64,000 nt of DNA from Candidatus Kapaibacterium sp. (lineage in GTDB: Bacteria; Bacteroidota; Ignavibacteria; OLB7), in NCBI GenBank assembly GCA_035549015.1, contig DASZRW010000111.1, positions 4,609 through 68,608 of the forward strand, written 5' to 3'. The translations under genes were made by a program, and so were the position numbers. Positions within the stretch are counted from its first letter, which is position 1; the number at the start of each line of letters is the position of its first letter. The notes beneath the pieces were generated by a model. That model had not been told where the DNA came from. It ran no database searches and saw nothing but the letters and a program-made list of their open reading frames with translations. This document shows, in pieces, positions 1-45,763 of this stretch.

Positions 1-67
1 TTGGCAGAGCGCCCCGATCGGAAGGATCGGGGAGGTAGCGCGCTCATGATTGACAACACAGAGACAT

Positions 68-140
68 ACGGGCGTAGCTCAATTGGCAGAGCGACGGTCT
101 CCAAAACCGTAGGTTGCGGGTTCGATTCCTGCCGCCCGTG
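68..140 (+). tRNA. tRNA-Trp (anticodon CCA)
   Basis: Hand-folded cloverleaf, 73 nt, CCA not encoded. 7-bp acceptor ACGGGCG/CGCCCGT, D arm GCTC/GAGC, anticodon stem ACGGT/ACCGT with loop CTCCAAA, T arm GCGGG-TTCGATT-CCTGC. Canonical position just upstream of secE-nusG. Confidence 0.9.
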
Positions 141-245
141 CGAAGAACAATGAATGCTCTGAGGGGCAGAGCGCTCCGGTAGCCATCGGAGATCCTGTAT
201 CGCGTATGCGTTCCGATCGAACGCAGTTTATTCTCGGCGAGGCAT

Positions 246-428
246 ATGAATCAGAATATCGGCGGTTTCGTGCGTGATGTCGGGAACGAAATGAAGAAGG
301 TTTCCTGGCCGAAGAAGGAGCAGTTGTGGGAGTCCACGATCGTCACGATCGTCGTCTGTCTCATCATCGCAATCTTCGTCTACGCGATCGATCTCATCTT
401 CACCGGCCTCTTCGGTCTGGTATTCTAG
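246..428 (+). CDS. secE: preprotein translocase subunit SecE
   Basis: 60-aa ORF with one C-terminal TM helix (IVTIVVCLIIAIFVYAIDLIF) and a KVSWP motif. Lies between tRNA-Trp and nusG. Confidence 0.9.
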   Translation: MNQNIGGFVRDVGNEMKKVSWPKKEQLWESTIVTIVVCLIIAIFVYAIDLIFTGLFGLVF

Positions 429-481
429 AAGTTGTCCCTCCTCCAAACGTTGCCGTCGATGGTGCGCAGTAACCCGGGTGA

Positions 482-1042
482 ATGAGCATGTCAACAAGCG
501 AGAATACAATCCAGAAGCGCTGGTACGCCATCCGTACCTACTCGGGACATGAGGCTCGCGTCAAGCAGCTTCTCGAGAGCGAGGTGGCGCGTCTGCAGCT
601 GACGGAATACGTTCCGACCGTTCTGATCCCGCTCGAGAAGGTCTACGAGGTGCGTGATGGTAAGAAGCGTACCCGCCAGAAGAACTTCCTTCCGGGGTAC
701 GTTCTGGTGGAGGCCGTGCTCAACAAGCGCGTGAAGGATCTGATTCAGAATACGCCGTCGGTGATCAACTTCGTCGGCACGAAGACGGAGCCGGCTCCGC
801 TTCAGCCGGACGAGATCAGCAGGATTCTCGATCGCATCGAGGAACGGAAGCACGTCGAGACGATCGTCGAGTCGTTCCGTGAGGGCGATCCGGTGAAGGT
901 GATCGACGGCCCGTTCAACAACTTCTCCGGCTTTGTCCGCGAAGTGAACATGAGCAAGCAGAAGCTGAAGGTGGAGGTCTCCATCTTCGGTCGCAAGACG
1001 CCGGTGGAACTCGACTTCTCACAGGTGGAGATAGAACGATAG
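482..1042 (+). CDS. nusG: transcription termination/antitermination factor NusG
   Basis: 186 aa. NGN domain start [11 protein letters not shown] and KOW motif [21 protein letters not shown]. Conserved secE-nusG-rplK synteny. Confidence 0.95.
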
Positions 1043-1122
1043 GGCGTGAGCCGGCAATCGGCTCCTGATGCCCGCGAAGAACGATACGTCGCAAAGAGAA
1101 CGTAACAGCTCCAGTATATACC

Positions 1123-1548
1123 ATGGCTAAAAAACTCCTCGGCACCTTCAAGCTTCAGATCTCGGCAGGCCAGGCCACGATGGCTCCTCCTGTCGGCCCG
1201 GCCTTCGGCCAGCGCGGCCTCAACGGCATGGAGTTCGTGAAGCAGTTCAACGCGAAGACTCAGAAGGACGGCGGCATCCTTACGCCGGTGCTGGTGAGTT
1301 TCTTCTCGGACAAGACCTTCACGTTCGTTGTGAAGAGCCCGCCCGCTGCGGTGCTCATCATCAAGGCGATCGCCATTCCGAAGGGCTCCGCCGAGCCGAA
1401 CCGCAACAAGGTGGGAACGGTGAGCCGCGCTCAGCTGGAGGAGATCGCCAAGGTGAAGATGGGCGATCTCAATTGCGATACGATGGAGAGCGCCATCTCG
1501 ATGCTCGCCGGCACGGCCCGCTCCATGGGCGTTACGGTTGAGGGATAA
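1123..1548 (+). CDS. rplK: 50S ribosomal protein L11
   Basis: 141 aa. Contains [34 protein letters not shown], typical of L11. Confidence 0.97.
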
Positions 1549-1688
1549 CACTTCCGGCGGCAGCCCGGCCGATCGTCTCGATAACAGGAACGCAGAACAA
1601 GAACTTTGGCAGAAGAAGTGGTGGGGATCGGTGCCGGCATCATCATGCGCCCGGCTCTCTTCCATTTCATATCTCATATCTCAGAACT

Positions 1689-2399
1689 ATGGCACAGCGT
1701 AGCAAGCGGTACACGAGCCTGACCAAGAAGGTCGACAGCACGAAGCAGTATACGCTTCCCGATGCGGTCCAGCTCGTCAAGGAGAATGCGACGGCGAAGT
1801 TCGACGAGTCCGTCGATATTGCCATCCGTCTCGGTGTGGACCCACGTAAGGCCGACCAGCTCGTGCGTGGCACGGTGTCGTTGCCGCACGGCATCGGCAA
1901 GACGGTGCGCGTGCTTGTTGTCACCCGCGACGCCAAGCAGGCCGAAGCCCGCGAGGCCGGCGCCGATCACGTGGGCTTCGAGGATATCCTCGAGAAGATA
2001 AAGGGAGGCTGGACCGACGTGGACGTCGTGATCGCCACTCCCGATGTGATGGGGGAGCTCGGCAAGCTGGGGAAGATTCTCGGACCCCGCGGCCTCATGC
2101 CGAACCCGAAGTCCGGCACGGTGACCATGGATGTCGCCACCGCCGTTCGCGAGGTGAAGGCCGGCAAGATCGAGTACCGTGTGGACCGCTCCGGCATCGT
2201 TCATGCATCGATCGGCAAGGCCTCGTTCCCGGCCGACAAGCTGATCGACAACATCCACATGTTCATGGGAAGCGTGATGCGCAACAAGCCGCAGTCCTCC
2301 AAGGGGAAGTACGTGCGCGGCATCACGATCAGCTCCACCATGGGTCCCGGCGTTCCGATCGTGGAAGCCGTCATGACCCAGGGTGCCGAGAAACACTGA
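1689..2399 (+). CDS. rplA: 50S ribosomal protein L1
   Basis: 236 aa. L1 motifs ([40 protein letters not shown]). Follows rplK. Confidence 0.97.
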
Positions 2400-2661
2400 G
2401 AGAGTTATGGGTGATGGGGTACGCATTTTTGAAATGCGGGCGCGATTATCCGCGCAACCCATGACTCGCAGCACCCATGACTCATAACCGAAAGCTTACG
2501 CACTCGCCTCGGCTGCGCTCCTGCTTCACATGTGCAGCCGACTATCGGCACCGGAAATTCGTTATCGCGTTCGGCGACGTCCCTCGTCTGTTCGGGGGAG
2601 CTTCAACGTCAACCAAGCCGGATCGAGCGGGTGAGCGGTGTAGGATAGGACACGATTATCC

Positions 2662-3231
2662 ATGGATCTGAAGAGATCCTATCTCTCCAAGAACATGACC
2701 AAAGCCAAGAAGGAAGAAGTGGTTGCAGATGTCGCCGAGCTCCTCGACGGAGCCTCCGGCGTCTATTCGATCGACTTCACTGGACTGACCGTTGCCAATG
2801 CGATCCGGCTTCGCCGTGAGTTCAAGCAGGCGGGTGTTGCCTACAAGGTTGCCAAGAATACGCTGATCAAGCGTGCCCTCGAACAGGTGGGCGGCTATGA
2901 TCACGTGCTGGACCGTTTCGTTGGCCAGACCGGCATCGCAATCGGCTACGATGATCCGGCCGCTCCGGCTCGCGTGCTGAACACGTTCATCGATCCGAAG
3001 GTCGACATCCCGAAGCTCAACTTCGTGCTGATCGAGAAGGAATTGATGGAAGGATCGAGACTCAAGGAGATTGCCGCGATGCCGTCGCGCAAGGAGATCC
3101 TTGGCTCGATCGTCGGCGCGTTGAATGCTCCTGCTTCGGGCATCGTTGGCGCAATCAACGCCGTGATGCGCGACCTCGCCTCGGTGATCGAGGAAGTTGC
3201 CAAGCAGAAGAGCGGCGCCGCCGCCGCCTGA
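2662..3231 (+). CDS. rplJ: 50S ribosomal protein L10
   Basis: 189-aa ORF. The L10-like N-terminus begins at the internal ATG 2695 (MTKAKKEEVVADVAELL), which may be the true start. Precedes rplL. Confidence 0.93.
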   Translation: MDLKRSYLSKNMTKAKKEEVVADVAELLDGASGVYSIDFTGLTVANAIRLRREFKQAGVAYKVAKNTLIKRALEQVGGYDHVLDRFVGQTGIAIGYDDPAAPARVLNTFIDPKVDIPKLNFVLIEKELMEGSRLKEIAAMPSRKEILGSIVGALNAPASGIVGAINAVMRDLASVIEEVAKQKSGAAAA

Positions 3232-3234
3232 GCA

Positions 3235-3276
3235 CGGCCGGAGACGGATAGCGCGGCCGGAGACGGATAGCGCGGC
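3235..3276. repeat. 19-bp tandem direct repeat, 2 full copies plus a partial third (CGGCCGGAGACGGATAGCG)
   Basis: Units at 3235-3253 and 3254-3272 are identical, and a third starts CGGC. Begins 4 nt after the rplJ stop, in the rplJ-rplL spacer. Confidence 0.9.
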
Positions 3277-3402
3277 AGGGTAGTCCCGCAGGGATTCACC
3301 GGGGGGATGTGGATGCCGCATCATGCCGCCGCTCCCGTGCCGCGTGCACGCGAACATTGAAAACAGCAACATCGAACACGCTAAATCAGGAAAGAATCAA
3401 CA

Positions 3403-3780
3403 ATGGCTAACATCGAAGAACTGGTCGAAACGATCGGCAATCTTACCCTTATCGAAGCTTCGGAGCTGAAGAAGGCTCTCGAGGACAAGTTCGGTGTCAC
3501 GGCCGCCGCCCCGATGATCATGGGCGGTCCGGTTGCCGCTGCTCCGGCTGCTGCAGCCGTTGAGGAGCAGACCGAGTTCACGGTCGAGCTCACCGACGGT
3601 GGCGCATCGAAGATCAACGTGATCAAGGTGGTTCGCGAGATCACCGGCCTTGGCCTGAAGGAGGCGAAGGATCTGGTTGAAGGCGCACCGAAGCCGGTGA
3701 AGGAGAGCGTCTCGAAGGAAGAGGCCGAGAGCCTGAAGAAGAAGCTCGAAGAGGCCGGTGCCAAGGTTTCGTTGAAGTAG
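3403..3780 (+). CDS. rplL: 50S ribosomal protein L7/L12
   Basis: 125 aa. Ala-rich hinge and C-terminal domain [32 protein letters not shown]. Confidence 0.97.
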
Positions 3781-3792
3781 GAACGCGCCCAT

Positions 3793-3836
3793 GCCCGGGG
3801 GCCGCGCGGCTTCACGTCGCGGCCGCCCGGGGCTTT
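3793..3836 (+). terminator. GC-rich hairpin + TTT (rplL-rpoB attenuator/terminator)
   Basis: GCCCGGGGGCCGCG pairs with CGCGGCCGCCCGGGGC (about 14 bp, two single-nt bulges) and is followed by TTTC. This is the classical place for a partial terminator between rplL and rpoB. Confidence 0.6.
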
Positions 3837-4356
3837 CAGGGTGTTCCGCTCTCACACCGCGCAGTTGTGAATCCGCCGTTTCGGCGAAAAAACGATCTCC
3901 CCGACGGTTCCCATGGCCGATTTTCGGAAAAGTGGTGGACGTCGGGGAGAATATCGCTATTTTCGCCAGCTACGTTGGGGGTAGATTGCCCGGGCAATAA
4001 CCCCCTCGTCGCTTCGTCGTTACGCTGAATCATCTGGAGTATCGTACGGCGTGCGTATGTTCGTTCTCAGACCGACAGCAAACGCAGTCTCAATCTCTGT
4101 GGCGCCGGAGACGATTCGCTCCATTTCTTCCAATCTGCTCATCTACGTCTATCAAACGCGTCCGCTGCGACACTTTGTGGATTCTTGACGGTTGTTCCGC
4201 CCCGAACGATCGTCAAGAATCCATTGTCGTCTCTTGATATAACGCTTCGTTCATCGGAAGCCGGCTGCCGAGGCCGGCATCCGGCTTCGATCGAAGCTGA
4301 CTGAGGTTGCAGTTCAGAGCAGATGCGAACCTTCCTTTCTGACCGGAGGTAACCAC

Positions 4357-8184
<3,828 letters not shown>

Positions 8185-8295
8185 GCCCGGAACTGCATGG
8201 AGCCCGAGCCCTGCCGGGGATGGCCCGGGGCGCGGGCGTGAAGACCGAGTGATTGAAATACGAAGTACTAACGATATATACATCGGGAGAAGACT

Positions 8296-12594
<4,299 letters not shown>

Positions 12595-12656
12595 TCGGAT
12601 TCCGGTTCGCCGATCGGGCTCCGGTCGGTTGACCGGATTCCATGGAACGACAATGC

Positions 12657-12696
12657 GAAGCCCCGGCTGCATGATGCTGCCGGGGCTTCGGCGTTT
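12657..12696. terminator. bidirectional hairpin between rpoC and Cys-rich paralog A
   Basis: Perfect 11-bp stem GAAGCCCCGGC / GCCGGGGCTTC with an 11-nt loop, followed by GGCGTTT. Lies between convergent stops at 12594 and 12718. Confidence 0.7.
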
Positions 12697-12717: not shown

Positions 12718-13173
12718 TCAATGGAAACAGTTGCCCGGGTTGATCGTGATCGTACAGGTGCAGGGATTGATGCAGACGTTGCAGCAGCATGCGCCAAGGC
12801 CCAGATGTATGCCCGCCACGGACCAGTCGTCCGGGCCGCAGCCTTCCACACTCACATAGATCGGCGAGTTGATGGGATAGATGGTTCCGACGTTGTCCGC
12901 GAGGCCCGAGATCTCTGCCGGCGACGGGAGCGTCAGATGGCTTGCCGTGCTGGCCGGCGCATGGAGCGGCGGCCAGGCTCCGGGGAAGGCCTGAAGATTC
13001 AGATCGATGTCGCAGCTGGTATTGTTGATGACATCGATCGTCTGGCACAGCGATGTGAATGTCGGTTGCGCCGAAGCGGTGCGTGCGCCGATCGTCGTGA
13101 CGAGCAACGTAACGAGCAGTATGGCCGCGGCGACCATTACTCCGGTACGGTAACGGCAGGTTCCTGCAATCAT
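12718..13173 (-). CDS. small secreted cysteine-rich protein, paralog A (unknown family)
   Basis: Trimmed to ATG 13173, with GGAG 8 nt upstream. Signal peptide MIAGTCRYRTGVMVAAAILLVTLLVTTIGARTASAQ. C-terminal cluster ACCCNVCINPCTCTITINPGNC. Paralogous to the next two ORFs. Confidence 0.7.
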   Translation of the reverse strand: MIAGTCRYRTGVMVAAAILLVTLLVTTIGARTASAQPTFTSLCQTIDVINNTSCDIDLNLQAFPGAWPPLHAPASTASHLTLPSPAEISGLADNVGTIYPINSPIYVSVEGCGPDDWSVAGIHLGLGACCCNVCINPCTCTITINPGNCFH

Positions 13174-13638
13174 GGTGATACTCCGTTGAATAGATTGAGT
13201 GAGGAATGGGATGAACCCGTGTATGGGAATGGGATGGATTCTTGCACACGGCCCGGCCTGCGTTGCACGGCCCGATGCCGTGCGATGGCAGCGCAACCCC
13301 CTGGGGGCGAACAGGCGTGAGCGTGGTTGCGCCGGCGTATACGGTCCTCGAATGTGAGAGAGCGCCGGAGTTCTTCGGATGGGGATATGATGTAAGAGGG
13401 GGTAGCAGTTCCTGATTGGACATTGCGTAGAGTGGCAGCGTGCAGCGATCCCGATGGCGGCACATCAGGCACCGATTCATCGTGACACACAAGGCGCGGG
13501 CCGGAGTGCCGCACCTTGTGTGGTGTATCGGGTTGGCGCTGCGTGGATTCAGCGCGAACGTTATCGTATGGGCCGTGGAGCGTCATCGCCCGCAAGCGGC
13601 ACGCTGGTACGATATTCCCGGAGGATTGCTTCCGGGGG

Positions 13639-14088
13639 CTACGGATTGCATGCCGGAGGCGTTTTCGACGGCCAGCATGTGAGAGTGCAGGTGCTTGGAT
13701 CGAAGCAGAGATCGAAGCATGCATTGTTCGGCGGCATCGTCACGTGGCTGACCATCCCCGAGGTGGGGCCGCACGGCGCGCCGCTCGGCGGAGGGGTGAC
13801 CGGGTAGAAGAAGCCGCCCGCGCTGATGATGCCGTTGATCGTGGTGCCGGGCGGGACTCCCGAGATAACGGAGCCGCCCGGCGCAACGCCGATTGGCGGA
13901 ATGCTTCCCGGCGGCGTGGTGACGAACTGCACCACGATCTGCGCCACAGCATGGTTGTTGGTGACGGTGATTGTTGCGCACGGCCATGCCACCTGGGCCG
14001 AAAGTGTGCGCGTGCCGGCGATAAGCGCCAGAACAAGCATTGATACCATGAGCAGTCCCCTGCCCGTTGTTCCGATTCGCATGGACAT
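13639..14088 (-). CDS. small secreted cysteine-rich protein, paralog B (unknown family)
   Basis: Trimmed to ATG 14088, preceded by AGGAGG. Signal peptide ...LLMVSMLVLALIAGTRTLSAQ. GGFFYPVTPPP block. C-terminal ACFDLCFDPSTCTLTC...PPAC. Confidence 0.7.
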   Translation of the reverse strand: MSMRIGTTGRGLLMVSMLVLALIAGTRTLSAQVAWPCATITVTNNHAVAQIVVQFVTTPPGSIPPIGVAPGGSVISGVPPGTTINGIISAGGFFYPVTPPPSGAPCGPTSGMVSHVTMPPNNACFDLCFDPSTCTLTCWPSKTPPACNP

Positions 14089-14489
14089 GATGACCTCCTG
14101 TGAAAGGCGGTTGGAGTAAATGATGACGCAGCGGTATTGCACGGGCACGCCCGGCAGGTACGCCGCGTGATTGATACGCAGCACATCGGCACACAGCCGT
14201 CGGTGCCGAAGCACCCGTGGCTGCGCCCAGTGGTCTGCAATTGATCGATGGTGAGTGGGGTTGGCCGGGGGCCACCACCGCCAGGTGAGCCGGGCGGCGG
14301 ATCTTCTGCGCTATCGACTGTTGTGTCGATGCCCCTCGGGTTGGGAGAGGAAAGCGGTGACCGAGCCTGAGGGGTGTATCTACACAGGGTTCCGGCAGAG
14401 TTGTCGGCACGATGACTCCGGGTATGCGGAATCGCGGGATCATCGGATCCCCTCCGACTGACGGAATGGGAACCGGTGCACTGTGGCGG

Positions 14490-14517
14490 GGCAGCCACGG
14501 CATCTACCGTGGCTGCC
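14490..14517 (-). terminator. hairpin downstream of Cys-rich paralog C
   Basis: Perfect 11-bp stem GGCAGCCACGG / CCGTGGCTGCC with a 6-nt loop, about 30 nt past the stop at 14549. No clear U-tract, so a weak call. Confidence 0.4.
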
Positions 14518-14548
14518 TGCCTTCACGTACGCATGGTCGGTTGCGCGA

Positions 14549-15007
14549 TTACGGTCTGCACTTCGGCGGCACCGGCGAGTTGGTGAGCGTGATCGTGCAC
14601 GTGTTCACATCGAAGCAGATGTTGAAGCAGCAGCCCGGAGGCGGGCCGAGCGTCACGTGCTGGATCCAGAAGTCCGTCGGCAGGCAGCCGATTCCGAGCG
14701 GCGGAGCGGGCGGATTCACCGGATAGAAGAAGCCGCCGAAGCTGGTGATGCCGGTGATCTGCAGGCCCGGAGGGGGCGTGGGAATGACGACTGCCGTGCC
14801 CGCGGGGACCAGCACCGGCGGAACGGCTCCGGCGGGAATCGTGACCAGGTTGAGCTGCGCAGTACACAACGTTGTGTTGTTGATTGTTGTATTCGGGCAG
14901 GGGGGATTCCACGGCAGCTGAGCCGATGCCGTCTGGATGCATGCGAACGCCGCCAGCGTAAGCGCGGCCGCCATCATCATGGCTGATGTTCTGATACGAG
15001 AGATCAT
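14549..15007 (-). CDS. small secreted cysteine-rich protein, paralog C (unknown family)
   Basis: Trimmed to ATG 15007, preceded by AGGAG. Signal peptide MISRIRTSAMMMAAALTLAAFACIQTASAQ. GGFFYPVNPP block. C-terminal GCCFNICFDVNTCTITL...PPKC. Confidence 0.7.
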   Translation of the reverse strand: MISRIRTSAMMMAAALTLAAFACIQTASAQLPWNPPCPNTTINNTTLCTAQLNLVTIPAGAVPPVLVPAGTAVVIPTPPPGLQITGITSFGGFFYPVNPPAPPLGIGCLPTDFWIQHVTLGPPPGCCFNICFDVNTCTITLTNSPVPPKCRP

Positions 15008-15448
15008 TCCTGTCTCCTGTGTATTGGGATGTATGTGGAATGGGGGATGAATTGCCGGAGTAGGTGCGCCGCAAACCCTTGCGGGCAAAGGCTTGCAGCC
15101 GGATGGGGTCAGCCGCGGATGCGATTCCAGATTGTGTTGTGCTGCAGACTGTCGTGGCAATCACGTTCGGGCCGCCATTGATTGGGGGGACTCACATCCC
15201 GGCCGAGACACTCGGCGGCGCCGGACGGAGTGAAGCCGGCGCTCTTGTGGATGTCACATACTAAGAGGAACTTCTACTCCGAGTTTGGACATGATTACCT
15301 GAGAAAACTGCATTCGAGAAGAAAGAAGATCTCCCTGTTGGCATGACGTATGTGGTAACTCTCGGGAATTTGTTCGATGTTCCGCACGCCGAACACAGAT
15401 CGGCCGCGACGCGGCCGATGATGCGGATCATTCCTGCACGGAGGTTGG

Positions 15449-17050
15449 ATGAGCAGCTCCCCTGATGCCTCGACGCTCGCTGCCGCAACGGGATCCAGGC
15501 CATGGATACTCGCAGCCACGATCATAGGCTCCAGCATGGCCTACATCGACGGCTCCGTTGTCAACGTTGCCATGCCGGTGCTGCAACGCGATTTCGGCGT
15601 GCGCATCGATCAGGTGCAGTGGGTCGTGGAGGCCTACACGCTCTTCGTCGCCTCGCTGATATTGATCGGAGGAACGCTCGGCGATCGTTACGGTCGCCGG
15701 CGCATCTACGCTGCAGGCGTTGCGCTCTATTCGATTGCGTCGGTATGGTGCGGGCTGGCGCCGAATGTGGATCAACTGATTCTTGCCCGCGTGCTGCAGG
15801 GGATCGGCGGCGCGATGCTGGTGCCGGGAAGCCTCGCAATCATCACCTCCTGCTTCTCCGATGAGGAGCGTGGCAAGGCGATCGGCACGTGGTCCGGACT
15901 CTCGGCCGTCTCCACGGCGATCGGCCCGCTGCTTGGCGGGTGGCTGGTGGACAACATCTCCTGGCGCGGCGTCTTCTTCATCAACGTTCCGCTCGGCGCG
16001 CTGGTGCTTCTGCTCCTCTACAGGCATGTTCCCGAGAGCAGCGACCCCGATGCGCCGAAGCGGCTGGACTGGACGGGCGCGGCTCTTGCGGCAACCGGGC
16101 TGGGCTCGCTGGTGTTCGGGTTGATTCAGGCGAACACACTCGGCGCCCGCAGTCCCATTGTTCTCGGCTCGTGCGGCGGCGGCATCCTGCTTCTGGCGGC
16201 CTTCATCTGGGTGCAGGCGCATACGGCCGCGCCGATGATGCCGCTCAAACTGTTTCGCTCGCGCGAGTTTGCCGCAACGAATATTCTCACGCTCCTGTTG
16301 TACGCCGCGCTGGGCGGCATGATGTTCTTTCTCGGATTCAATCTCATTCAGGTTCAGGGCTACTCCGCAACGGCAACGGGCGCGGCGCTGCTGCCGTTCA
16401 TCATCCTCATCTCCACACTCTCACGCTGGGCCGGAGGGCTTGCAACGCGCCATGGGCCGCGCCTTCCGCTGGTGCTCGGTCCCGTGGTTGCGGCGGGCGG
16501 ATTCGCACTCCTCACCCTTCCCTCACTGGGAGGCTCCTACTGGAGCACGTTTTTCCCCGGCATCGCGGGTGTGGGATTGGGCATGGCAATTACCGTGGCC
16601 CCGCTCACCGCCACCGTGATGGGCTCCGTTGCGCCTCATCATGCCGGCACCGCCTCCGGCATCAACAACGCCGTGTCGTGGCTTGCCAGCCTGCTCGCCA
16701 TCGCCCTGCTGGGCCTTGTCGCCGTGGACAGCTTTCGCGGGAAGCTGGAGACGGAGCTGATGCGCCGGCCGCTGAGCCAGGCATATCGTACTGCGATAGC
16801 AGGCCAGAGTGCCAAGCTCGCGCAGATCGAACTTCCGGCCGCGATGAGCAGGGAGGAGGCCGCGGCCGCGCATGCCGCGATCGACGTGGCATACATCGGA
16901 ACGTTTCGCATCGTGATGTTCTGGTGCGCCGGCCTTGCGCTCGCCAGCGGCCTCCTGGCCGGGGCGGTGCTGGGAACGGGCAAACGATTGAAGATCAATC
17001 AGCAGGAATCTGGAATCACGAATCAGGGACTACGAATTCCCCGTCCTTAA
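15449..17050 (+). CDS. MFS transporter, DHA2 (EmrB/QacA-like, 14-TMS) drug:H+ antiporter family
   Basis: 533 aa with many TM segments. N-terminal MAYIDGSVVNVAMPVLQRDFG and GGTLGDRYGRRR (MFS motif A). SD GGAGG upstream. Confidence 0.9.
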   Translation: MSSSPDASTLAAATGSRPWILAATIIGSSMAYIDGSVVNVAMPVLQRDFGVRIDQVQWVVEAYTLFVASLILIGGTLGDRYGRRRIYAAGVALYSIASVWCGLAPNVDQLILARVLQGIGGAMLVPGSLAIITSCFSDEERGKAIGTWSGLSAVSTAIGPLLGGWLVDNISWRGVFFINVPLGALVLLLLYRHVPESSDPDAPKRLDWTGAALAATGLGSLVFGLIQANTLGARSPIVLGSCGGGILLLAAFIWVQAHTAAPMMPLKLFRSREFAATNILTLLLYAALGGMMFFLGFNLIQVQGYSATATGAALLPFIILISTLSRWAGGLATRHGPRLPLVLGPVVAAGGFALLTLPSLGGSYWSTFFPGIAGVGLGMAITVAPLTATVMGSVAPHHAGTASGINNAVSWLASLLAIALLGLVAVDSFRGKLETELMRRPLSQAYRTAIAGQSAKLAQIELPAAMSREEAAAAHAAIDVAYIGTFRIVMFWCAGLALASGLLAGAVLGTGKRLKINQQESGITNQGLRIPRP

Positions 17051-17078: not shown

Positions 17079-17846
17079 ATGTCTGATTCGCAATTATCGA
17101 AGATCCGGCGTGCGCTTGGTGGCAAGCGCGCGGATATCCTCGTGGTGCTCGGTTCCGGGATGGGGCATTGCTTCCTTCCGCATGAGTACGACGTACTGTA
17201 CGAGCACGGGGAGACCGGTGTGGTGGGCCATTCCGGACGGCTGGTGCTGCTTCGAAGCAGCGAAGGCACCGTGCTGGTAAGCCTTGGGCGCCGCCATCTC
17301 TACGAAGGCCTGGCACCCGGCGACGTGGCCGCATCGGTCCGTGCTGCAGGCGAACTCGGCGTCCGGGCCGTCCTGCTCACCAATGCATCGGGAGGGCTGA
17401 ACCCTCGTTACCGGGCTGGCGACATCATGCTGATCGAGGAATGCATCGGAATGATGATGGCGCGTCAGCTGCATGCCTGCGGCGTACGGGGGGAGCTCTT
17501 CGCAACGGAGCGTTATGCGGCAATTGCATCGGCTGCGCTTGCGCGCGGCGTCGCTCTCGAGCGCGGAACGTACGCGGCAGTTCCGGGGCCCAGCTACGAG
17601 ACGCGCGCGGAGATCCGGATGCTGCGCCGCATGGGGGCGGATGCGGTCGGCATGTCGACACTTCCCGAGGCGTTGGAGGCGCGGCGCGCGGGAGCGAAGG
17701 TGATCGGCATATCGCTCATCACCAACACCCTCTCGGACACGGCGCGCACCATGCTGGATCATGCGGACGTGGTGGCACAGGGAGCGGCAGGCATTGCCCG
17801 CATGCGTACGGCGCTGGACGTGACGCTGGCAGCCGTGTGGGCATAG
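17079..17846 (+). CDS. purine nucleoside phosphorylase (PNP family 2, inosine/guanosine type)
   Basis: 255 aa. Motifs VVLGSGMG, GHSGRLV, GPSYETRAEIRMLRRMGADAVGMSTLPE, ISLITN. Confidence 0.93.
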   Translation: MSDSQLSKIRRALGGKRADILVVLGSGMGHCFLPHEYDVLYEHGETGVVGHSGRLVLLRSSEGTVLVSLGRRHLYEGLAPGDVAASVRAAGELGVRAVLLTNASGGLNPRYRAGDIMLIEECIGMMMARQLHACGVRGELFATERYAAIASAALARGVALERGTYAAVPGPSYETRAEIRMLRRMGADAVGMSTLPEALEARRAGAKVIGISLITNTLSDTARTMLDHADVVAQGAAGIARMRTALDVTLAAVWA

Positions 17847-17990
17847 GGAGCGGTTGGTGTGCCTGGCCATGGCGGCGCGGCGGAGCGCAGTTCGGGAGGA
17901 TCGCGCCGGGTTGCTATCGAACAACGGCGTGCGCATTGAGATCGAGTGTTGCCTGCATGGAGGCGGGGAGGGGGCGAACCGCGAGCACGG

Positions 17991-18620
17991 GGGAGTACCG
18001 GTTCCGGTCTGCGCAGTGATACCGGAGGTGTTGCCGTAGGCGACGCCGTCGATAATGGCGCCGACGATTTCATCGTAGCCGTTCGGATGGCTGCGCCTGC
18101 GAATGACGCCGATCCCTTCCGCCCATTCGTCCGACGAAGACCAGTCCAGGCCGACTGCGCCACCGCTGTAGTAGACAACCTCCGTGGAGCGAACGGATCT
18201 GCCCAAGATGCCGGGATGATAGATGGCGTTGATCTGCGCATACGTTGGCACATCGAGGGTGATCGTGTCCACCACCCACCAATCGCCGGAGTCGGCGGTG
18301 GCTGTGAACCATCGTTTGAATGTCTGCCATCGCGGGTTTGAACGTTGATCGAACAAGCAATTCGTATCGACCCGGTACCAGAATTGTTCTCCAGCGGATG
18401 AAGTTATACAAAGCCAATATTCACCATCTGCACCGATGGAATCACGCACCACGGTCTCATTGCAGCCGCTCTTGAAGCGTGTGGAGGCATAGAACCAGGT
18501 ATCGCCCGGACGCAGGCCGTAGTCGCAGGGCCAGCCGTGAGGCTGAGCAGTTGAGGTGCCCGAAGCGGCTATCACAATCGCGGTCGCCTGGAGAAGGAAA
18601 TGACCGTTGCAATACTTCAT
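17991..18620 (-). CDS. secreted hypothetical protein, 3' end unresolved (possible truncated gene)
   Basis: Signal peptide MKYCNGHFLLQATAIVIAASGTSTAQ followed by about 185 aa of Trp/Tyr/Asp-rich, globular-looking sequence ending ...IVGAIIDGVAYGNTSG. The frame has no stop until 17094, so it runs antisense through the PNP gene. Only the first ~210 codons look like coding sequence. Confidence 0.45.
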
Positions 18621-25444: not shown

Positions 25445-27310
25445 ATGATTGCAGGTATGCATCGCATCGTTCGCAGAACCGTGCTTCTGCTGGCGGTCAC
25501 CATTGGCTTCGCGGCTGCGGCCGGGGAGTTGCACGGGCAGGGTTTCCAGGATGTGTATGGCTCCAGTCCATGCCGTGAGGCTGGGCGTGGAGGCGTGCTG
25601 CAGCTGCCGGGCGGCGGATATATCGCCGTGGGAGAGACGTTCATCGCGCCAACCGGAGCGTGCGGCACATCCGATATCTATATCGTGCGGACGAATGCGA
25701 ACGGCACGAACTTCTGGTCCGGGACGTACAACATCGGCGGCAACGATTCGGCAACCAGCGTGATTCTCAGCGCGCTGAATCCGAACGTCATCTACGTGTG
25801 CGGCGTCACGCAGAACCTCGGCGGATCGTGCGTGGTTTCGCGCGACGGCTTCATCATGCGTGTGGATATCACAACGGGTGCGGCCGTTGCGTTTACGTTC
25901 GGTTCCAACCGCGACGAGATCTTCTATGATATCGTGGAGGCAACCGGTGGGGACAATGTCACCACGCATGCCGGCGATCTCATCGCCGTCGGCTCCACCA
26001 CGAACGCATCCGGCACCGGCCGCGACGGCTACATCGTGCGCGTCACGGCCGGGCTCGGCATCATCTGGGGCCGTCAGTACGGCGGCACGGCGAGTGCGGA
26101 TGAGTATTTCCTCGGCGTCGCGGAGGCGCCGCTCAACTCGCCGCCGAACGTGGCTCCGGATATCGTGGCGGTTGGTGCAACCAACACCACCGGCGCCGGC
26201 AACTACGATGCATTGGTTGCGCGGGTCAGCGGCCAGAACGGTCTGGACGGCGCGGCGCCACAGAACATCGCGGTGTTCGGCGCCGCGCGGAACGAGGAGG
26301 CTCGCTCCGTCCGCCAGCTCCGGGTGGGTGCATCCGCCGGCACGCTCGCGGTGGTTGGATACAGCGACTCGCGGCCGGCCCCCAATGCCGGCCTGGAGAG
26401 CTTCCTGATGCGGCTGCAGGGCGACCCCTGCGGAACACCGATCTGCGAGCGCTACTTCGGCGACAATGCCAACGGTATCGACGGCGCCCGCTGCGTGCGT
26501 GAGGTGCCTGCCGGTGCGCCGGCGGGGATGACGCCGGGCAATCTCATCGTCACCGGCACCACGGCACTCGGCGGCGGCACCGTCACCGGCAACAACGTCT
26601 ACCTCGCCGAGTTCAGCGGATGCAGCCTCGTTACCGGCACCGAGGCCTACGGCGGCAACGGTTTCGACGAGGGATGGTCCGTCAACATCGCCACGCATGC
26701 AACCAGCAGTGAGACGCCGGGCTACATCATCTGCGGATACACGCAGAGCGCATCGCTGATCGGAGCCGATCCGCAGCAGCTCTATCTGATCAAGACCCGC
26801 ACCAACAAGCTGAGCGGTTGCAATGAAGTCGCCATTCTGTTCAGCGACGCGGCCGCGCAGTTCAGCCAGCACTGCATCGACATGGTGAACACGTCGCTCA
26901 CGCCGAACTGCGGCCGTTCAACGGCGCGCGTCCTGCTGAACATCTTCAATCAGCTCTGCTTCGCTCCGATGGCGCGGCAGGGAGACGGCGGAACCAGTGA
27001 CGGCGTTGCCGGCGTGGAGTCACCCTCCACAATCAGTCTCAACGCGCATTCGGCACGCTTCTATCCGAACCCGGTTACCGCCGGGGCGCCGATGAACGTG
27101 CGGTTCGAACTGCCGGTTGCCTCGCAGGTGACGGTGACGGTAAGCGATATCCTTGGCAACACGATCTACGGCAACACGGCGGCCTATGAGGCCGGCTCCG
27201 CGCTGCACGTGATCAACACGGCCGGATGGGCCAGCGGCAGGTACATCGTCAACATCTCCGCGCCGGGCACGACGCCGTACGCCACGGTGGTCTCCGTGGT
27301 AGGACGATAA
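25445..27310 (+). CDS. secreted repeat (beta-propeller-like) protein with T9SS C-terminal sorting domain
   Basis: ATG 25445 after GGAGAGG (the track ORF starts at 25421). Signal peptide MIAGMHRIVRRTVLLLAVTIGFAAAAG. Recurring D-[GI]-[YF]-I-[VM]-R strands. C-terminus FYPNPVTAGAPMNVRFEL...GRYIVNISAPG resembles a type A T9SS CTD. Confidence 0.85.
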   Translation: MIAGMHRIVRRTVLLLAVTIGFAAAAGELHGQGFQDVYGSSPCREAGRGGVLQLPGGGYIAVGETFIAPTGACGTSDIYIVRTNANGTNFWSGTYNIGGNDSATSVILSALNPNVIYVCGVTQNLGGSCVVSRDGFIMRVDITTGAAVAFTFGSNRDEIFYDIVEATGGDNVTTHAGDLIAVGSTTNASGTGRDGYIVRVTAGLGIIWGRQYGGTASADEYFLGVAEAPLNSPPNVAPDIVAVGATNTTGAGNYDALVARVSGQNGLDGAAPQNIAVFGAARNEEARSVRQLRVGASAGTLAVVGYSDSRPAPNAGLESFLMRLQGDPCGTPICERYFGDNANGIDGARCVREVPAGAPAGMTPGNLIVTGTTALGGGTVTGNNVYLAEFSGCSLVTGTEAYGGNGFDEGWSVNIATHATSSETPGYIICGYTQSASLIGADPQQLYLIKTRTNKLSGCNEVAILFSDAAAQFSQHCIDMVNTSLTPNCGRSTARVLLNIFNQLCFAPMARQGDGGTSDGVAGVESPSTISLNAHSARFYPNPVTAGAPMNVRFELPVASQVTVTVSDILGNTIYGNTAAYEAGSALHVINTAGWASGRYIVNISAPGTTPYATVVSVVGR

Positions 27311-36263: not shown

Positions 36264-39179
36264 TCAGCGGTGCCGGCTCTTCTTCTTCTTTGGGCTCTCG
36301 GGAATCTTGTTCAGTTCGAACAGCACCATCGAATTCTTCTCGCTCTTCTTCAGCGCGCGGGCCATGTCCAGCAGGTCGGGATCGCTCCATGCAAGCACAA
36401 GGCGAACGGCCTTGGCGCGAATCGTGGGGGACGGGTTCGCGAGCAGCCCCGAGAGGAGCTGCGATCGACCGGTGGAGTCGTGCATGGTGAGCGCAAGCTG
36501 ATAGAGCAGGGTGAAGGAGAAGCCGCTCTGATTCTCCAGCATGGAATGGACGATTGCCCGGCTGACGTCCACGCTGTCCACCCCGCGATTCTGCAATGCC
36601 AGTTGCACCTGGTGCCGGACCACCTGGCTGCGATCGTTCATGGCGGACATGATCTCGTTCAGTTCCGTGGAGTCCGCAACCAGAACCATGGCGCGCGCGG
36701 CGTAACCGCGAACAAGCTCCACGGTGTCGCGCAGCGCCATCTTCAGGTACGGCTTTGCCGACGGCGCCTTGATCTTCAGCAGAGCCTGGCCCGCAGCGGC
36801 GCGCATCCTCCAGGTTGCCTTCGGGTCCACCAGCTTCCTGCCGATCACCTCGGCAGCGGTGGTGTCCCGTATCTCTCCAAGGGAGTAGAGGGCGCGGCCC
36901 ACCCGCTCCGGTGCACCCATCGCAACGGTGTCCATCAGCGGCTTCAACATCCGCTTGCCGATCCGCGGAAATATGACGTCGATCGCAAGGCGCTCGCGCG
37001 GCAGCTCCGTGTTCATCATGCCGAGCAGATAGGGGATCGATTCGTCGGCGCGCTCCACCAGGCGCCATCGCGCCGTATCCACCAGGTACTGGAACTTCTG
37101 CGGAGCGGCGGAGGCCTGGGTGAAGAGCGTGGGAATATCCTTCCCCAGTTCCGCACCGATCTCCTCCTTCGTCTTCTTCACCTCCGCCGGGCCGGTGCTC
37201 GGCGCATCCTGACTCTTCGGGCGGAGGTTCGCATCCAGTCCGGCGCCGTAGAAGCTGCCGTTCCAGAGGCTGTCGTTCCCTCCGCGGATCGATCCGTAGT
37301 AATCCTTCCCCTCGAGATCCAGGAAGATGCCGATCATCCCGTAGTCGTTGCGAAGGTCGCTGTAGCCCATCGTGTTGTTGACCCGTGCCAGATAGCCATC
37401 GGTGCCGCCGCCGTCAATGAACAGTGAGATGGCGTCCGCATTGCCCCCCCCCTGCGAGAGCGACTCCACGACATAGTTGTCGTCTCCCTTGGCATCGTAG
37501 AAGCCGCCGAAGCCCACATCGTGTCCGCATCCCTGCGACACGCCGTGCGATACGTAGTTGTCGTCGCCGGACGTGTCGATCAATGCGCCGAAGGCAAGGT
37601 GCACGCCGGCACCCTGCGCGTACTGATAGGCGCTGTAGGAGTCGTTGCCGCCGTAATCGACGATCGCCCCCAGACCGTACCAGTAGCCCGTTCCCTGGCC
37701 GAAGATGTCGGCAACGTATGTGTCGTTGCCGGAGCCCTCGGCGATATAGCCGATGCCGGCCGATGCCACCGGACGTGCGCCCAGCGCCGCTCCCTGGCAG
37801 AAGGTCTCGAAGTGATCGGCGTAGCGGAGAAAGTCGACGTAGGGGGAGGAGGCGATGTACTGATCGTTTCCTTCATGCTCGATGATGGCGCCGATGCCGC
37901 GGGTGTATCCGAAGCCCTGCGACTCGAAGTGGGCGAGATAGGTGTCGTTTCCCTGCGCATCGATCAGCAGCCCGATGCCGAACATGCCGGCCCCCTCCAC
38001 TGCGGTGCCGCCGGAATAGCGGTCGCTGCCGGCGCCGTCGTAGAGGATACCCGTTCCGAAGTAGCCGCAGCCCAGCGAGAAGTTCCCGGCGGTGTAGCTG
38101 TCGTCCCCCTTCATGTCGATTACCGTGGAGGCGCCGAACAGCGTGCCGCCGAACGCGAAGTCCTGGCCGATGTAGGTATCGTTGCCGTCGAAGTCCACGA
38201 TCAGCGTCACCTGCCGGTCCGCCGCATCCCGTTTCGTGTGCGGCTTCGGCTTGTAGATGTCGTTGCCGCCGACATCGATCACGCAGAAGAGATCGCCGGT
38301 GTAGATGTCATCTCCCGGCCCTCCCAGCGCCACCACGCCGAGCGGTGTCTGCCAGATCTGCGTCTTGATGGAATCCTTCAGCCGCGCGACCTCCGGCGCC
38401 ATGTTCTGCGCCAGATCGAACGCCACGGAGAAGAGCCCCACGCCCGGTTCCAGCAGTGCCTGATAGTCCAGCCCGTTGGCATCGTCGTTGAAGAACTGCT
38501 TGCTGCGCTTCAGGCCGTAGCGCTCGGACTCCTTCATCTCCAGCAGCGTCGCGTTCGCATCATCCTCCGATTGCAGGATCAGCGAATCGCAGTAGGCGAT
38601 CAGGCGTGTAAGCCGTTCCGCCTTGATCGATCCCTTCACGTTGGTAAGCGATGCATCGGTTGCCAGCGCGAGCATCAGGAACTTTCGAAGGAGGAAGGCG
38701 TCCGGGAGGCCGAGCTTCGAGATATCCACCTTGCTGTAGAGCTTGATCTCGTTGTCGCTCAGGGCGGGATGCTGCACCACGAAGGCGTTGTCGCCGAAGT
38801 CCAGGCGCTTGCCGAGGTGGTTGAAGAGCGCGCCGTAGTTCTTCCGGTTGGAGAGGGAGATCGATGCGAGCGAATCGGCAACGGAGAAGGTGGCGAGCGG
38901 ATCGCCGAAGAGTCGCTTGATCACCGAGAGCCGGTGGGGATCGGTGCCGGCCGCATCCCAGCGCATCGACATGTCCGCCCGGGTCATGGCCATCGAGGAG
39001 AGTGCCGAATCAACACCGCGCATCACGTAGCCGGGAAGATACTGGGCATGGAGCGAGGTGGCCGCGAGCGCAAGCACTGCGGCTGCAAGTGCGCTGACCA
39101 TCGGCCTGCTGGCGGGCAGGGAGGAGGAGATAGTTGTTGTCACTGACCTGTCGGCTACGTTGGTTGTTGGAGCTGGCAA
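36264..39179 (-). CDS. large secreted protein: about 13 GxDxY repeats (beta-helix-like) plus C-terminal HEAT-like repeats
   Basis: 971-aa ORF (alternative start ATG 39101, MVSALAAAVLALAATSLHAQ signal). Recurring GNDTY/GDDSY/GDDNY motifs every ~20-25 aa. The C-terminal ~300 aa are helical with HEAT-like periodicity, with a Lys-rich tail. Confidence 0.85.
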   Translation of the reverse strand: MPAPTTNVADRSVTTTISSSLPASRPMVSALAAAVLALAATSLHAQYLPGYVMRGVDSALSSMAMTRADMSMRWDAAGTDPHRLSVIKRLFGDPLATFSVADSLASISLSNRKNYGALFNHLGKRLDFGDNAFVVQHPALSDNEIKLYSKVDISKLGLPDAFLLRKFLMLALATDASLTNVKGSIKAERLTRLIAYCDSLILQSEDDANATLLEMKESERYGLKRSKQFFNDDANGLDYQALLEPGVGLFSVAFDLAQNMAPEVARLKDSIKTQIWQTPLGVVALGGPGDDIYTGDLFCVIDVGGNDIYKPKPHTKRDAADRQVTLIVDFDGNDTYIGQDFAFGGTLFGASTVIDMKGDDSYTAGNFSLGCGYFGTGILYDGAGSDRYSGGTAVEGAGMFGIGLLIDAQGNDTYLAHFESQGFGYTRGIGAIIEHEGNDQYIASSPYVDFLRYADHFETFCQGAALGARPVASAGIGYIAEGSGNDTYVADIFGQGTGYWYGLGAIVDYGGNDSYSAYQYAQGAGVHLAFGALIDTSGDDNYVSHGVSQGCGHDVGFGGFYDAKGDDNYVVESLSQGGGNADAISLFIDGGGTDGYLARVNNTMGYSDLRNDYGMIGIFLDLEGKDYYGSIRGGNDSLWNGSFYGAGLDANLRPKSQDAPSTGPAEVKKTKEEIGAELGKDIPTLFTQASAAPQKFQYLVDTARWRLVERADESIPYLLGMMNTELPRERLAIDVIFPRIGKRMLKPLMDTVAMGAPERVGRALYSLGEIRDTTAAEVIGRKLVDPKATWRMRAAAGQALLKIKAPSAKPYLKMALRDTVELVRGYAARAMVLVADSTELNEIMSAMNDRSQVVRHQVQLALQNRGVDSVDVSRAIVHSMLENQSGFSFTLLYQLALTMHDSTGRSQLLSGLLANPSPTIRAKAVRLVLAWSDPDLLDMARALKKSEKNSMVLFELNKIPESPKKKKSRHR

Positions 39180-45200: not shown

Positions 45201-45763
45201 GGTTCCTCCCGGCAGGAGGGGTTGTGCAGCCAGATGCATTCGGTGGACGACTCGCCGGCATGAACATCGGGGAGGAAGGGGAGGATGCGGCCATCGACGT
45301 CCACGGACGGAGGAACGGAGGCTACGCCGCGAACGAACATCGTCAGCTCGCTGCCGCCATGTCCGAAGTGAATCTTGAACGATGCGGTGTAGACTCCCGG
45401 TACATGCGGAGAGAAGCGGATGGTATCGGTAACCGTCTTGCGGTCCGGAATCGAATCCTGGGGAGGCCGGGGCGAGAAGCTGAAGGGATCGGCCAGGCGT
45501 CCCGGGCGGTATTCCTCGACGAAGACCGTGTGCCCGGTCACATTCGTGATGGTAAACGGGGCGGAGACGGTTTCCCCCACAACCACGCAGTTGAACCGGA
45601 GCGTATCCGGCGTGAGTGTGGGATCGTTCGGGCCGCCTCCGTGCGGATCGAGCTGCGCATGCGCGGCCATGGACCAGAGGCCCAGGAGGAGCGCAGGGAT
45701 CAGCCGTCGAAGTGTACCGAAGGGGAGCATAGGCCGGCAGCCGGATTGAGAAATACGGACCAC
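42281..45763 (-). CDS. very large secreted Ig-like-repeat protein (choice-of-anchor-D-like) with T9SS C-terminal sorting domain
   Basis: 1160 aa. Signal peptide ...LLLGLWSMAAHAQ (alternative start 45730). Repeated F[GN]CV..G[DE]T....F.I.N.G modules. C-terminus YPMPARDRITIRYH...GMYYVRLRTATVQSVLPVLV resembles a T9SS CTD. Confidence 0.88.
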   Translation of the reverse strand: MVRISQSGCRPMLPFGTLRRLIPALLLGLWSMAAHAQLDPHGGGPNDPTLTPDTLRFNCVVVGETVSAPFTITNVTGHTVFVEEYRPGRLADPFSFSPRPPQDSIPDRKTVTDTIRFSPHVPGVYTASFKIHFGHGGSELTMFVRGVASVPPSVDVDGRILPFLPDVHAGESSTECIWLHNPSCREEPVTQLSIPGQDYSISSAPPLPFAIPGRDSVQICVRFAPRADGVHSDTLTIGMGPQRTQIALIGRQVQAGQPSLVIEPSVRVRMDSTFVGHVSAPQTILLYNVGDADDSLAPQQIILDGPDADQFTVTPAAIPGRILHADHADTFVVNVRFTPNRPGPLMTAFRLRHVDGNRPPVMSPGIGGVGLLAAATGLPNAVTIGDSVEVGTTGEQDSAWQLRNDGNVPLEIDSVTIGGTDSAAFAVEGPSGSLPPGATFRYDVSFSPGAVRTYNAILLANGHYIDQNRQPRAEQKSVSVTGRGFELPQPDPRVVLDRSQYDFGCVPLGDTSTAIVFHISNNGTRAVTLKEYRLPPAFEGFGPRAGTVIDAGTTYTDSLRFAPKNPNPPDVGGEFRVDVEGGQGSPTTATLTAHVGPPLRPTFAVSLLTFPNVAPGDTSAVPDTAIINNRSCRTLLVTSVSGPATPAFGIVQPPTGSIPIPANSGGYPLAVIFTPPTGSSGDLFDTIVVHAANGSRDTLALRGRADSTGRHGASIVSIAGAPVGFDTVIVALADTVTIRLVNRGDLDAQINADSLGFMDASVQDFQLLNRPSGTATLHAGAPDTLSLSVRFAPGAAGDVRNSLHVAFTDGNRRTLDIPLAGAGTPGPVIVPAAVQVPDVAAGDVAQLDNFFRIANAGVRGMTLERIELAGPDSAAFQVTPKQNALAPHDSIACSVRFAPDAVRTYSVGMTARFTNGLTAVATLGGNGILRPPAAEVITIDSASVNVNQKFTLGVNAYPPLTQSAAATDLNVKIHVDPDALFLYRVIPAAGATDSIGFSKDNDTIFIVRHASAPMAGNPLIALEMEGLVTGRPKNTVGLLQVAMPNNGTTAIGELRDGLVALSGCEIAHPVSFSRPVAAKLIYPMPARDRITIRYHAAPGSYPTMEIINVTGITVRSETLPAGTGQDQEVVVALAGLPAGMYYVRLRTATVQSVLPVLVTG

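Follow-up and report, generated by a model that had tools for sequence, protein, structure and literature searches.

Three tandem genes behind rpoC in a Candidatus Kapaibacterium genome belong to a previously undescribed family of exported, cysteine-rich proteins

The stretch of DNA analysed here, which we refer to as the window, comprises 64,000 nucleotides of Candidatus Kapaibacterium sp. (GenBank assembly GCA_035549015.1, contig DASZRW010000111.1, positions 4,609 to 68,608 of the forward strand). Behind rpoC it carries three consecutive open reading frames (ORFs), all on the minus strand, which encode small, cysteine-rich proteins with signal peptides and which are called copies A, B and C in the following. 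In the metagenome-assembled genome (MAG) GCA_964643935.1, the array was located on contig CAZXUY010000056.1. According to the ORF list, the minus-strand sequence and the translations, copy A (12718-13173) encodes 151 amino acids including the signal peptide, with 116 residues and 10 cysteines in the mature chain, copy B (13639-14088) encodes 149 amino acids (mature 118, 7 cysteines) and copy C (14549-15007), the copy used for structure modelling, encodes 152 amino acids (mature 123, 8 cysteines). These lengths are counted from the ATG codons picked by the first-pass annotation of this DNA, and the trimmed N-termini agree with the usual start of the family, M-x-x-R/K-I-R. Each ATG is located 6-9 nt after a Shine-Dalgarno (SD) sequence, which is GGAG for copy A, AGGAGG for copy B and AGGAG for copy C. 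The copies are separated by spacers of 465 and 460 nt. Copy A lies tail-to-tail with rpoC (8296-12594, plus strand), with 123 nt between the two genes, and a gene coding for a major facilitator superfamily (MFS) transporter (15449-17050, plus strand) is divergent from copy C. The first-pass annotation had described the locus as three tandem paralogues in a tail-to-tail arrangement with rpoC, each preceded by an SD sequence, spaced by about 460 nt and coding for 7-10 cysteines per mature chain, and all of this was borne out by our analysis. The pyrimidine-rich leaders that it had reported for copy A (TTCATCCCATTCC) and copy C (TTCATCCCCCATTCC) are both present, and every one of its motif blocks is found in the alignment of the three proteins.

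The three proteins align with each other across their full length and their similarity is far above chance, with BLASTP E-values of 4e-28 for copies B and C (47% identity), 6e-18 for copies A and C and 6e-11 for copies A and B. A hidden Markov model (HMM) of the family recognises copy A with an E-value of 7e-35, copy B with 6e-41 and copy C with 5e-51, and copy A is a member of a subfamily that carries a C-terminal NPCTCTIT motif. An exhaustive search with the HMM in 1.84 billion representatives yielded 83 proteins at E <= 1e-3, of which 50 were found at E <= 1e-10. All 83 proteins are 110-173 amino acids long and have a single domain, and the profile covers essentially the entire mature protein. 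Long chance ORFs are common in high-GC windows, and the window contains a prominent example, a 2,819-amino acid ORF on the minus strand (4213-12672), which runs antisense to rpoB and rpoC and is a shadow ORF of the kind that GC-rich coding DNA typically produces, and not a gene. One might therefore suspect that copies A, B and C are likewise spurious ORFs in GC-rich DNA and not genes. This reading is effectively refuted by the 83 homologues of conserved length with a signal peptide and conserved motifs, the pairwise covariation of their cysteines, an AlphaFold2 model with a predicted local distance difference test (pLDDT) score of 96, the SD site at each gene and the fact that the genes are called in independent assemblies. 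It is strongly supported that the three copies are real, related genes, which belong as paralogues to a multigene family that had not been described before.

The first-pass annotation did not recognise the family, and the searches gave the same answer. The three copies have no match in Pfam (E <= 10) or NCBIfam, and none of 82 family members has a Pfam match at E <= 0.1. PHROGs and PADLOC likewise gave no match for the family, and all PDB sequences were searched with a profile at E <= 10, again without a match. As a sequence family, it is new. It is also rare. A word-indexed search of 5.8 billion clusters identified only four outside relatives, and a second indexed search with an 82-sequence profile returned 26 clusters, each with 1-4 member sequences from one or two contigs. 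These clusters originate from JGI, ENA, Logan or NCBI MAGs, and all family members come from MAGs or metagenomes. The only informative taxon labels among them are 'Candidatus Kapabacteria bacterium' and 'Candidatus Kapaibacteriota bacterium', with one more MAG labelled merely 'Bacteroidetes bacterium'. A DNA pattern for Q-x3-WNPPC-x4-[VI]-x-N picked out a single Kapaibacteriota MAG as well as the MAG labelled 'Bacteroidetes bacterium', four further matches being due to chance, and a scan of GTDB genomes with the motif GCCFDVYF gave chance matches only, where the motif scans (GTDB, IMG/VR and JGI) cover about one quarter to one third of the sequence diversity of the family. The C-terminus of RpoC from the window is at most approximately 69% identical to anything on a long contig, and the relatives that bear a name are Kapabacteria, Bacteroidota and Ignavibacteriae. 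Going by the labels, the family is confined to Kapabacteria-type members of the Bacteroidota/Ignavibacteria group, and the motif scans, at their coverage of about one quarter to one third, suggest that it is absent from other lineages.

All three proteins are predicted to be synthesised with a signal peptide, which we identified by a rule-based reading of the tripartite structure and of the small residues at positions -3 and -1. The signal peptide of copy A (13069-13173, minus strand) is 35 amino acids long and consists of a basic n-region, a hydrophobic core and an AxA motif, which is followed by glutamine at position +1 (TASA/Q, the slash marking the cleavage site). Those of copies B (13996-14088, minus strand, 31 amino acids, TLSA/Q) and C (14921-15007, minus strand, 29 amino acids, TASA/Q) share the cleavage-site column that is conserved in the family, with A, S or G at position -1, mostly A at -3 and glutamine at +1 in 78 of 82 members. 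In these features, the family resembles the signal peptidase I substrates of Bacteroidetes, which according to the Q-rule expose a glutamine that is cyclised to pyroglutamate (PMC5837995, PMC10653852). The Q-rule also applies to Ignavibacterium album, with a Q-value of 77% (PMC5837995). In a crude scan of the window, the same type of ending was found in the ORFs at 17097-18620 (STA/Q), 36267-39143 (LHA/Q) and 42284-45730 (AHA/Q), all on the minus strand, and a predicted exported protein encoded at 25445-27307 on the plus strand also has a glutamine directly after its predicted cleavage site. The source organism as a whole thus seems to follow the Q-rule. Because other exported ORFs in the window and the Q-rule literature show the same ending, the terminal AQ is a lineage-wide trait and not a signature of the family; the ASAQ and LSAQ endings, which the first-pass annotation had pointed out, are present in all three copies but are not family-specific. 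The Q-rule describes the biogenesis route of most exported proteins of the lineage and is silent on the function of the mature domain. By analogy, the N-terminal glutamine of the mature family proteins is probably cyclised to pyroglutamate.

No lipobox is present in the family, as the +1 residue is glutamine and the first cysteine follows 6-8 residues further on, and the three copies have no NCBIfam or Pfam match to the C-terminal domain of the type IX secretion system (T9SS; TIGR04183/TIGR04131, PF18962). Both features had also been noted as missing by the first-pass annotation. Instead, the whole mature protein is a single domain of approximately 120 amino acids, which ends in PPCxP. There is good support for export of the family products across the inner membrane. 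The earlier description of the proteins as secreted therefore stands for Sec export and signal peptidase I cleavage, that is, for transport at least into the periplasm, whereas passage across the outer membrane goes beyond this evidence. In a diderm cell, a signal peptidase I substrate that bears no additional sorting signal is by default retained in the periplasm.

The mature chains have an unusual composition, with 17.0% proline, 6.1% cysteine, 9.4% threonine and 6.0% asparagine. Charged residues (D, E, K and R) make up 5.0% of the mature family chains compared to 21% in the other long ORFs of the window; glutamate, lysine and histidine account for 0.4%, 0.6% and 0.4%, respectively, and copy C contains four charged residues among 123. 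Using the numbering of mature copy C, which is used throughout, the conserved non-cysteine columns are Q1 (96%), N15 (93%), G57, P72, D100 (82%), D104 (66%) and P123 (82%), and in 59 of 74 members exactly two residues follow the last cysteine (CRP, CNP, CTP, CVP and others). No set of catalytic-type residues is conserved in the alignment of 74 mature sequences. The sole conserved charges, D100 and D104, are located on the same face of strand 9, which is proposed below to be the hub of the domain, and judged from conservation, these two residues together with N15 would be the best candidates for a functional patch. Two types of glycosylation were considered and rejected. The motif for Bacteroidetes O-glycosylation, D[ST][AILVMT], is present in just one of 74 members. 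In 58 of 69 cases, N15 is part of an N-x-S/T sequon, but without an acidic residue at position -2, which is needed by PglB-type N-glycosylation systems, and we read this context as structural.

An AlphaFold2 model based on 7 sequences reached a pLDDT of 86.9 and a predicted template modelling (pTM) score of 0.82, and a second model, for which 74 mature sequences were used with copy C as the query, reached a pLDDT of 96.1 and a pTM of 0.90, with 115 of 123 residues above 90. The copy C model is all-beta, with strands at approximately residues 2-5, 10-15, 21-28, 36-38, 43-47, 53-59, 65-67, 84-92, 97-104 and 109-114, and a long proline-rich loop at residues 68-83. When the two models were compared with the PDB and one of them with BFVD using Foldseek, nothing was found at E <= 0.001, although the Foldseek prefilter can miss similarities between beta-sandwiches. 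The best E-values were 0.1 (model 1) and 0.3 (model 2) for the PDB, with template modelling (TM) scores of at most 0.44, and 0.05 for BFVD, and these weak, non-significant top matches were thaumatin-like proteins, the beta domain of pVHL and MoHrip2. On the basis of the models, the fold of the family is likely new. Across the family, the cysteine columns of the 74-sequence alignment are gained and lost pairwise. All 74 sequences contain both C8 and C108. C19 and C97 are both present in 56 sequences and C98 and C121 in 69, in neither case with a sequence that has only one of the two, and C79 and C102 are both present in 19 sequences, while only one of them is found in 5. Further pairs are subfamily-specific (24/35, 41/insertion and 88/117), and the number of cysteines is even in 71 of 82 mature chains. 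This pattern of covariation implies the disulfide map C8-C108, C19-C97, C79-C102 and C98-C121 for copy C. Strand 9, which contains C97, C98 and C102, anchors three of the four inferred bonds, and C108 marks the start of strand 10, so that both chain termini would be stapled to the core.

The array is not the only family locus in this genome. On contig CAZXUY010000109.1 of the same MAG (L002), two more members are encoded side by side (9145-9570 and 10001-10501, 141 and 166 amino acids), bringing the genome to at least five family copies. This pair directly follows a phage-tail-like cluster (1-8560), which encodes a 1,843-amino acid tape-measure protein with a PhageMin_Tail domain, followed by proteins of 171, 635 and 272 amino acids. 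L002 also encodes a 166-amino acid exported protein on the minus strand (13920-14420) with a signal peptide ending in VAHA/Q, several cysteines and an acidic composition; it is matched weakly by the family HMM (E-value of 2e-6 in a small ORF set) and may be a very distant relative of the family or a chance match. Tandem copies also occur elsewhere, as pairs in L004/L010 and L030, and as three genes in a row on a 1.6-kb metagenome contig (L035, JGI10216J12902_115212748, 1-1627), in which the spacers are approximately 50-150 nt long. The spacers of approximately 460 nt are therefore particular to the array in the window. Solo family genes adjoin unrelated housekeeping or transport genes, and an all-against-all comparison of seven independent loci revealed no recurrent neighbour gene besides the family itself. 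The first-pass annotation had spoken of an expanded family, and if this is taken to mean a recent local expansion, it does not fit the relationships between the copies. Copy A is most similar to P0053 and P0028, which stem from other sources (39-42% identity), and not to the adjoining copies; the best relatives of copy C are P0037, P0021 and P0006, and copy B alone has its closest relative in copy C. Because the best relatives of copy A come from other organisms and not from its neighbours, the paralogues appear from their sequences to be old subfamilies and not the product of a recent burst.

The placement of the array directly behind the rpoBC genes had also been singled out as unusual. In the relatives L017 and L018, rpoC runs directly into rpsL-rpsG-fusA-tuf and the S10 operon, whereas in the window this ancient linkage between rpoC and rpsL is broken and the family array, the MFS transporter gene and other accessory genes follow. 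The array therefore sits at a rearrangement breakpoint, or synteny break, behind rpoC, in a comparison whose nearest useful relatives are approximately 65-69% identical. With this break and with the unrelated neighbours of the other members, the position behind rpoC is probably incidental, without a visible functional tie to rpoBC. In the relatives L015 and L017, the gene calls break rpoB and rpoC into several pieces, which are probably due to frameshift errors in the assemblies.

In every family gene examined, a GGAG-type SD sequence is preceded by a G-depleted, C/A/T-rich leader. In the window, these elements cover 13174-13223 for copy A, 14089-14138 for copy B and 15008-15057 for copy C, all on the minus strand, with G fractions of 0.08, 0.11 and 0.05, respectively, at positions -50 to -13. 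Family genes have a mean G fraction of 0.116 in this region, compared to a set of other called genes (n = 41), for which it is 0.223 (Mann-Whitney p = 2.7e-4). We infer that the G-poor leaders are unstructured, which would fit efficient translation. A hairpin follows each gene. In the convergent region between rpoC and copy A, a GC-rich inverted repeat (I2, 12656-12690) with 17-nt arms that are 94% complementary folds with z-scores of -4.0 (minus strand) and -7.7 (plus strand). It resembles a bidirectional terminator, though without a clear U-tract. A second strong hairpin (12597-12641, plus strand) is located directly after the rpoC stop codon and, together with the one at 12656-12690, folds at -65.6 kcal/mol with a z-score of -7.7. 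A small and weak hairpin (13617-13636, minus strand, -11.7 kcal/mol, z-score of -1.95) directly follows the stop codon of copy B, and a 12-bp GC-rich hairpin (14490-14517, minus strand, fold z-score of -4.9) is found 32 nt after that of copy C. Since a hairpin follows each gene, it is plausible that each copy is its own transcription unit.

The remaining sequence between the copies consists of non-coding spacers upstream of copy A (13224-13616, minus strand) and copy B (14139-14489, minus strand) and of the intergenic region (15058-15448) from which copy C and the MFS transporter gene diverge. We considered whether the spacers are decayed family copies, and this idea was rejected as neither tblastn nor blastn found a family remnant; they also lack an Rfam match and show no alignment with one another. 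Compared to shuffled sequences, their folding is somewhat better (z-scores of -2.5 to -3.7), which is largely owing to discrete GC hairpins. Each copy has a stable GC hairpin approximately 45-95 nt upstream of its ATG, which is followed by the G-poor leader; for copy C this is a 14-bp hairpin at approximately 15069-15100. To judge from their position, these upstream hairpins may serve as a 5' stem stabilising the mRNA or as an insulator against read-through. No Bacteroidia-type TAnnTTTG element was found near the copies.

Taken together, we favour, with moderate confidence, the explanation that these genes encode a family of exported, disulfide-stapled beta-domain proteins and, with low confidence, that these may act as coat or binding proteins of the envelope or the extracellular space. 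In this model, the precursor is directed to the Sec pathway by its signal peptide and cleaved by signal peptidase I after the AxA motif, exposing glutamine as the first residue. After leaving the cytoplasm, the product folds as a single compact all-beta domain of approximately 120 residues. Its hub is strand 9 (CCFxxCFD), which is held by four disulfides to the N-terminus (C108 with C8), the loop between strands 2 and 3 (C97 with C19), the long proline-rich loop (C102 with C79) and the extreme C-terminus (C98 with C121, in PPCxP-COOH). Each gene stands alone, with its own SD sequence, G-depleted leader and downstream hairpin and without a dedicated partner gene, and several old paralogues would supply surface variants. 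Because no catalytic-type residues are conserved, the mature domain is most likely a non-enzymatic module, which would be very stable and protease-resistant. By analogy, we tentatively suggest that the protein could be abundant in the envelope or extracellular matrix, with a structural, coating or binding role, since such a role fits best with an almost complete lack of charge, much proline, four staples, strong signals for translation and several paralogues that have been maintained.

Several observations weigh against this explanation. The functional proposal draws on composition and analogy only, and the disulfide map draws on cysteine covariation and not on model coordinates. Copy B, which lacks the C19-C97 pair and has one extra cysteine, contains 7 cysteines and thus an unpaired one, and copy A has two extra cysteines (C99 and C106), which, judged from the sequence, may pair with each other. 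The restriction to one lineage is based on few labelled MAGs and on motif scans that cover part of the family. The control set for the G-poor leaders is small and mixed and includes genes inside operons, the hairpins after the genes have no clear U-tract, so that the term terminator is inferential, and promoter scans of the locus named no promoter, as the one sigma-70-like site upstream of copy C is within chance expectation.

The small size, the export and the high disulfide content of a multigene family with divergent paralogues would also fit secreted antagonistic or defensive effectors, which bind or damage the walls or membranes of competitors or eukaryotic grazers in the manner of thaumatin-like proteins and osmotin, or inhibitors of foreign hydrolases such as the thaumatin-like xylanase inhibitor TLXI, and the paralogues would then diversify target specificity. 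The recurrence of thaumatin-like proteins among the weak top Foldseek matches, with osmotin, zeamatin and TLXI in the PDB and a thaumatin-domain protein in BFVD, points in this direction, and like the family, these proteins are exported, disulfide-rich and all-beta; the conserved D100 and D104 also loosely recall the acidic cleft of thaumatin-like proteins. However, these matches are non-significant (best E-values of 0.1-0.3 and TM scores of 0.15-0.29 for 1z3q, 3zs3, 1pcv and 3g7m, with E-values of 0.1-0.8 for the thaumatin-like matches as a group), and the Pfam Thaumatin model (PF00314) matches neither the three copies (E <= 10) nor any of 82 members (E <= 0.1). In addition, thaumatin-like proteins are eukaryotic and have approximately 200 amino acids and 16 cysteines (TLXI 151 amino acids and 10 cysteines). 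No immunity or partner gene is found nearby, the near-zero charge is unlike that of most membrane-active antimicrobial proteins, which are cationic, and the paralogues are old and stably kept and do not turn over rapidly. We therefore regard an effector function as unlikely, albeit worth keeping in mind. The class of small, cysteine-rich proteins secreted by fungi and oomycetes is similar in comprising lineage-restricted, multigene families of short, exported, disulfide-stabilised proteins without a recognisable domain, but this class is defined by description and not by homology, and the family described here is from a diderm bacterium and has an unusually low charge and a high proline content.

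Since a signal peptidase I substrate without a T9SS domain or lipobox stays periplasmic by default, the proteins might instead be kept within the cell as periplasmic or outer-membrane-associated binders of a ligand or cation, in which the N15/D100/D104 patch binds a metal such as Ca2+ or a small basic ligand and the protein serves as a stable periplasmic buffer or envelope-stabilising factor. The position of the sole conserved charges, two aspartates on one face of the hub strand, is in line with this idea, but a recognisable metal site would need more than two aspartates, no histidine, methionine or free-cysteine motif is conserved and several divergent paralogues would be unusual for a simple periplasmic binder, which makes it a doubtful candidate. 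The two paralogues directly downstream of the phage-tail-like cluster in the same MAG, the scattered chromosomal positions of the family and the synteny break at the array raise the question of phage cargo, that is, prophage 'moron' genes that serve to exclude superinfection or to mask receptors and were spread by phages to different chromosomal sites. We consider such an origin very improbable, as no phage genes flank the array in the window or the other loci, PHROGs and PADLOC gave no match, the IMG/VR scans, with motifs that cover just part of the family, found no member, the GC content and GC content at third codon positions resemble those of host genes and the signal peptides obey the Q-rule of the host.

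Returning to the proposed coat or binding protein, a parallel is provided by the fungal hydrophobins (PF01185, PF06766). These are also small (approximately 100-130 amino acids in the mature form), Sec-exported proteins with very few charges, a compact beta core and eight cysteines that form four intramolecular disulfides and include an adjacent Cys-Cys pair, and several separately transcribed paralogues are encoded per genome. On the other hand, there is no Pfam match between the two families, the cysteine pattern C-C-C-CC-C-C-C with one CC pair differs from the hydrophobin pattern C-CC-C-C-CC-C and a proline content of 17% is no hydrophobin trait. Neither hydrophobin nor BslA structures were among the Foldseek matches, and the bacterial coat protein BslA is a functional analogue only; the family is related neither to BslA nor to hydrophobins. 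Hydrophobins self-assemble at interfaces, and for the family only the low charge (5% D, E, K and R) would point to such a behaviour. One might speculate that a new fold serves Kapabacteria as a bacterial counterpart of hydrophobins, an almost uncharged, proline-rich and abundant beta-domain protein that is locked by four disulfides and self-assembles, on the cell or on surfaces, into a protease-proof coat whose surface is tuned by the old paralogues, but we consider this more specific idea to be rather unlikely.

Orphan exported families are common in metagenomes, and the interest in this one will remain moderate until a function is found. To our knowledge, Kapabacteria have very few cultured representatives, and we know of nothing that has been described about their envelope or secreted proteins. 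The novelty of the family is at the family level and probably also at the fold level, and no new mechanism is claimed. With a compact domain that is modelled confidently (pLDDT of 96) and a disulfide map derived from evolution, the family provides a tractable entry into protein 'dark matter'. Its extreme composition, with 5% charged residues, 17% proline and four disulfides, suggests an unusual stability and a possible use as a scaffold. With its small size, the domain lends itself to NMR or crystallography, and it may represent a new beta topology.

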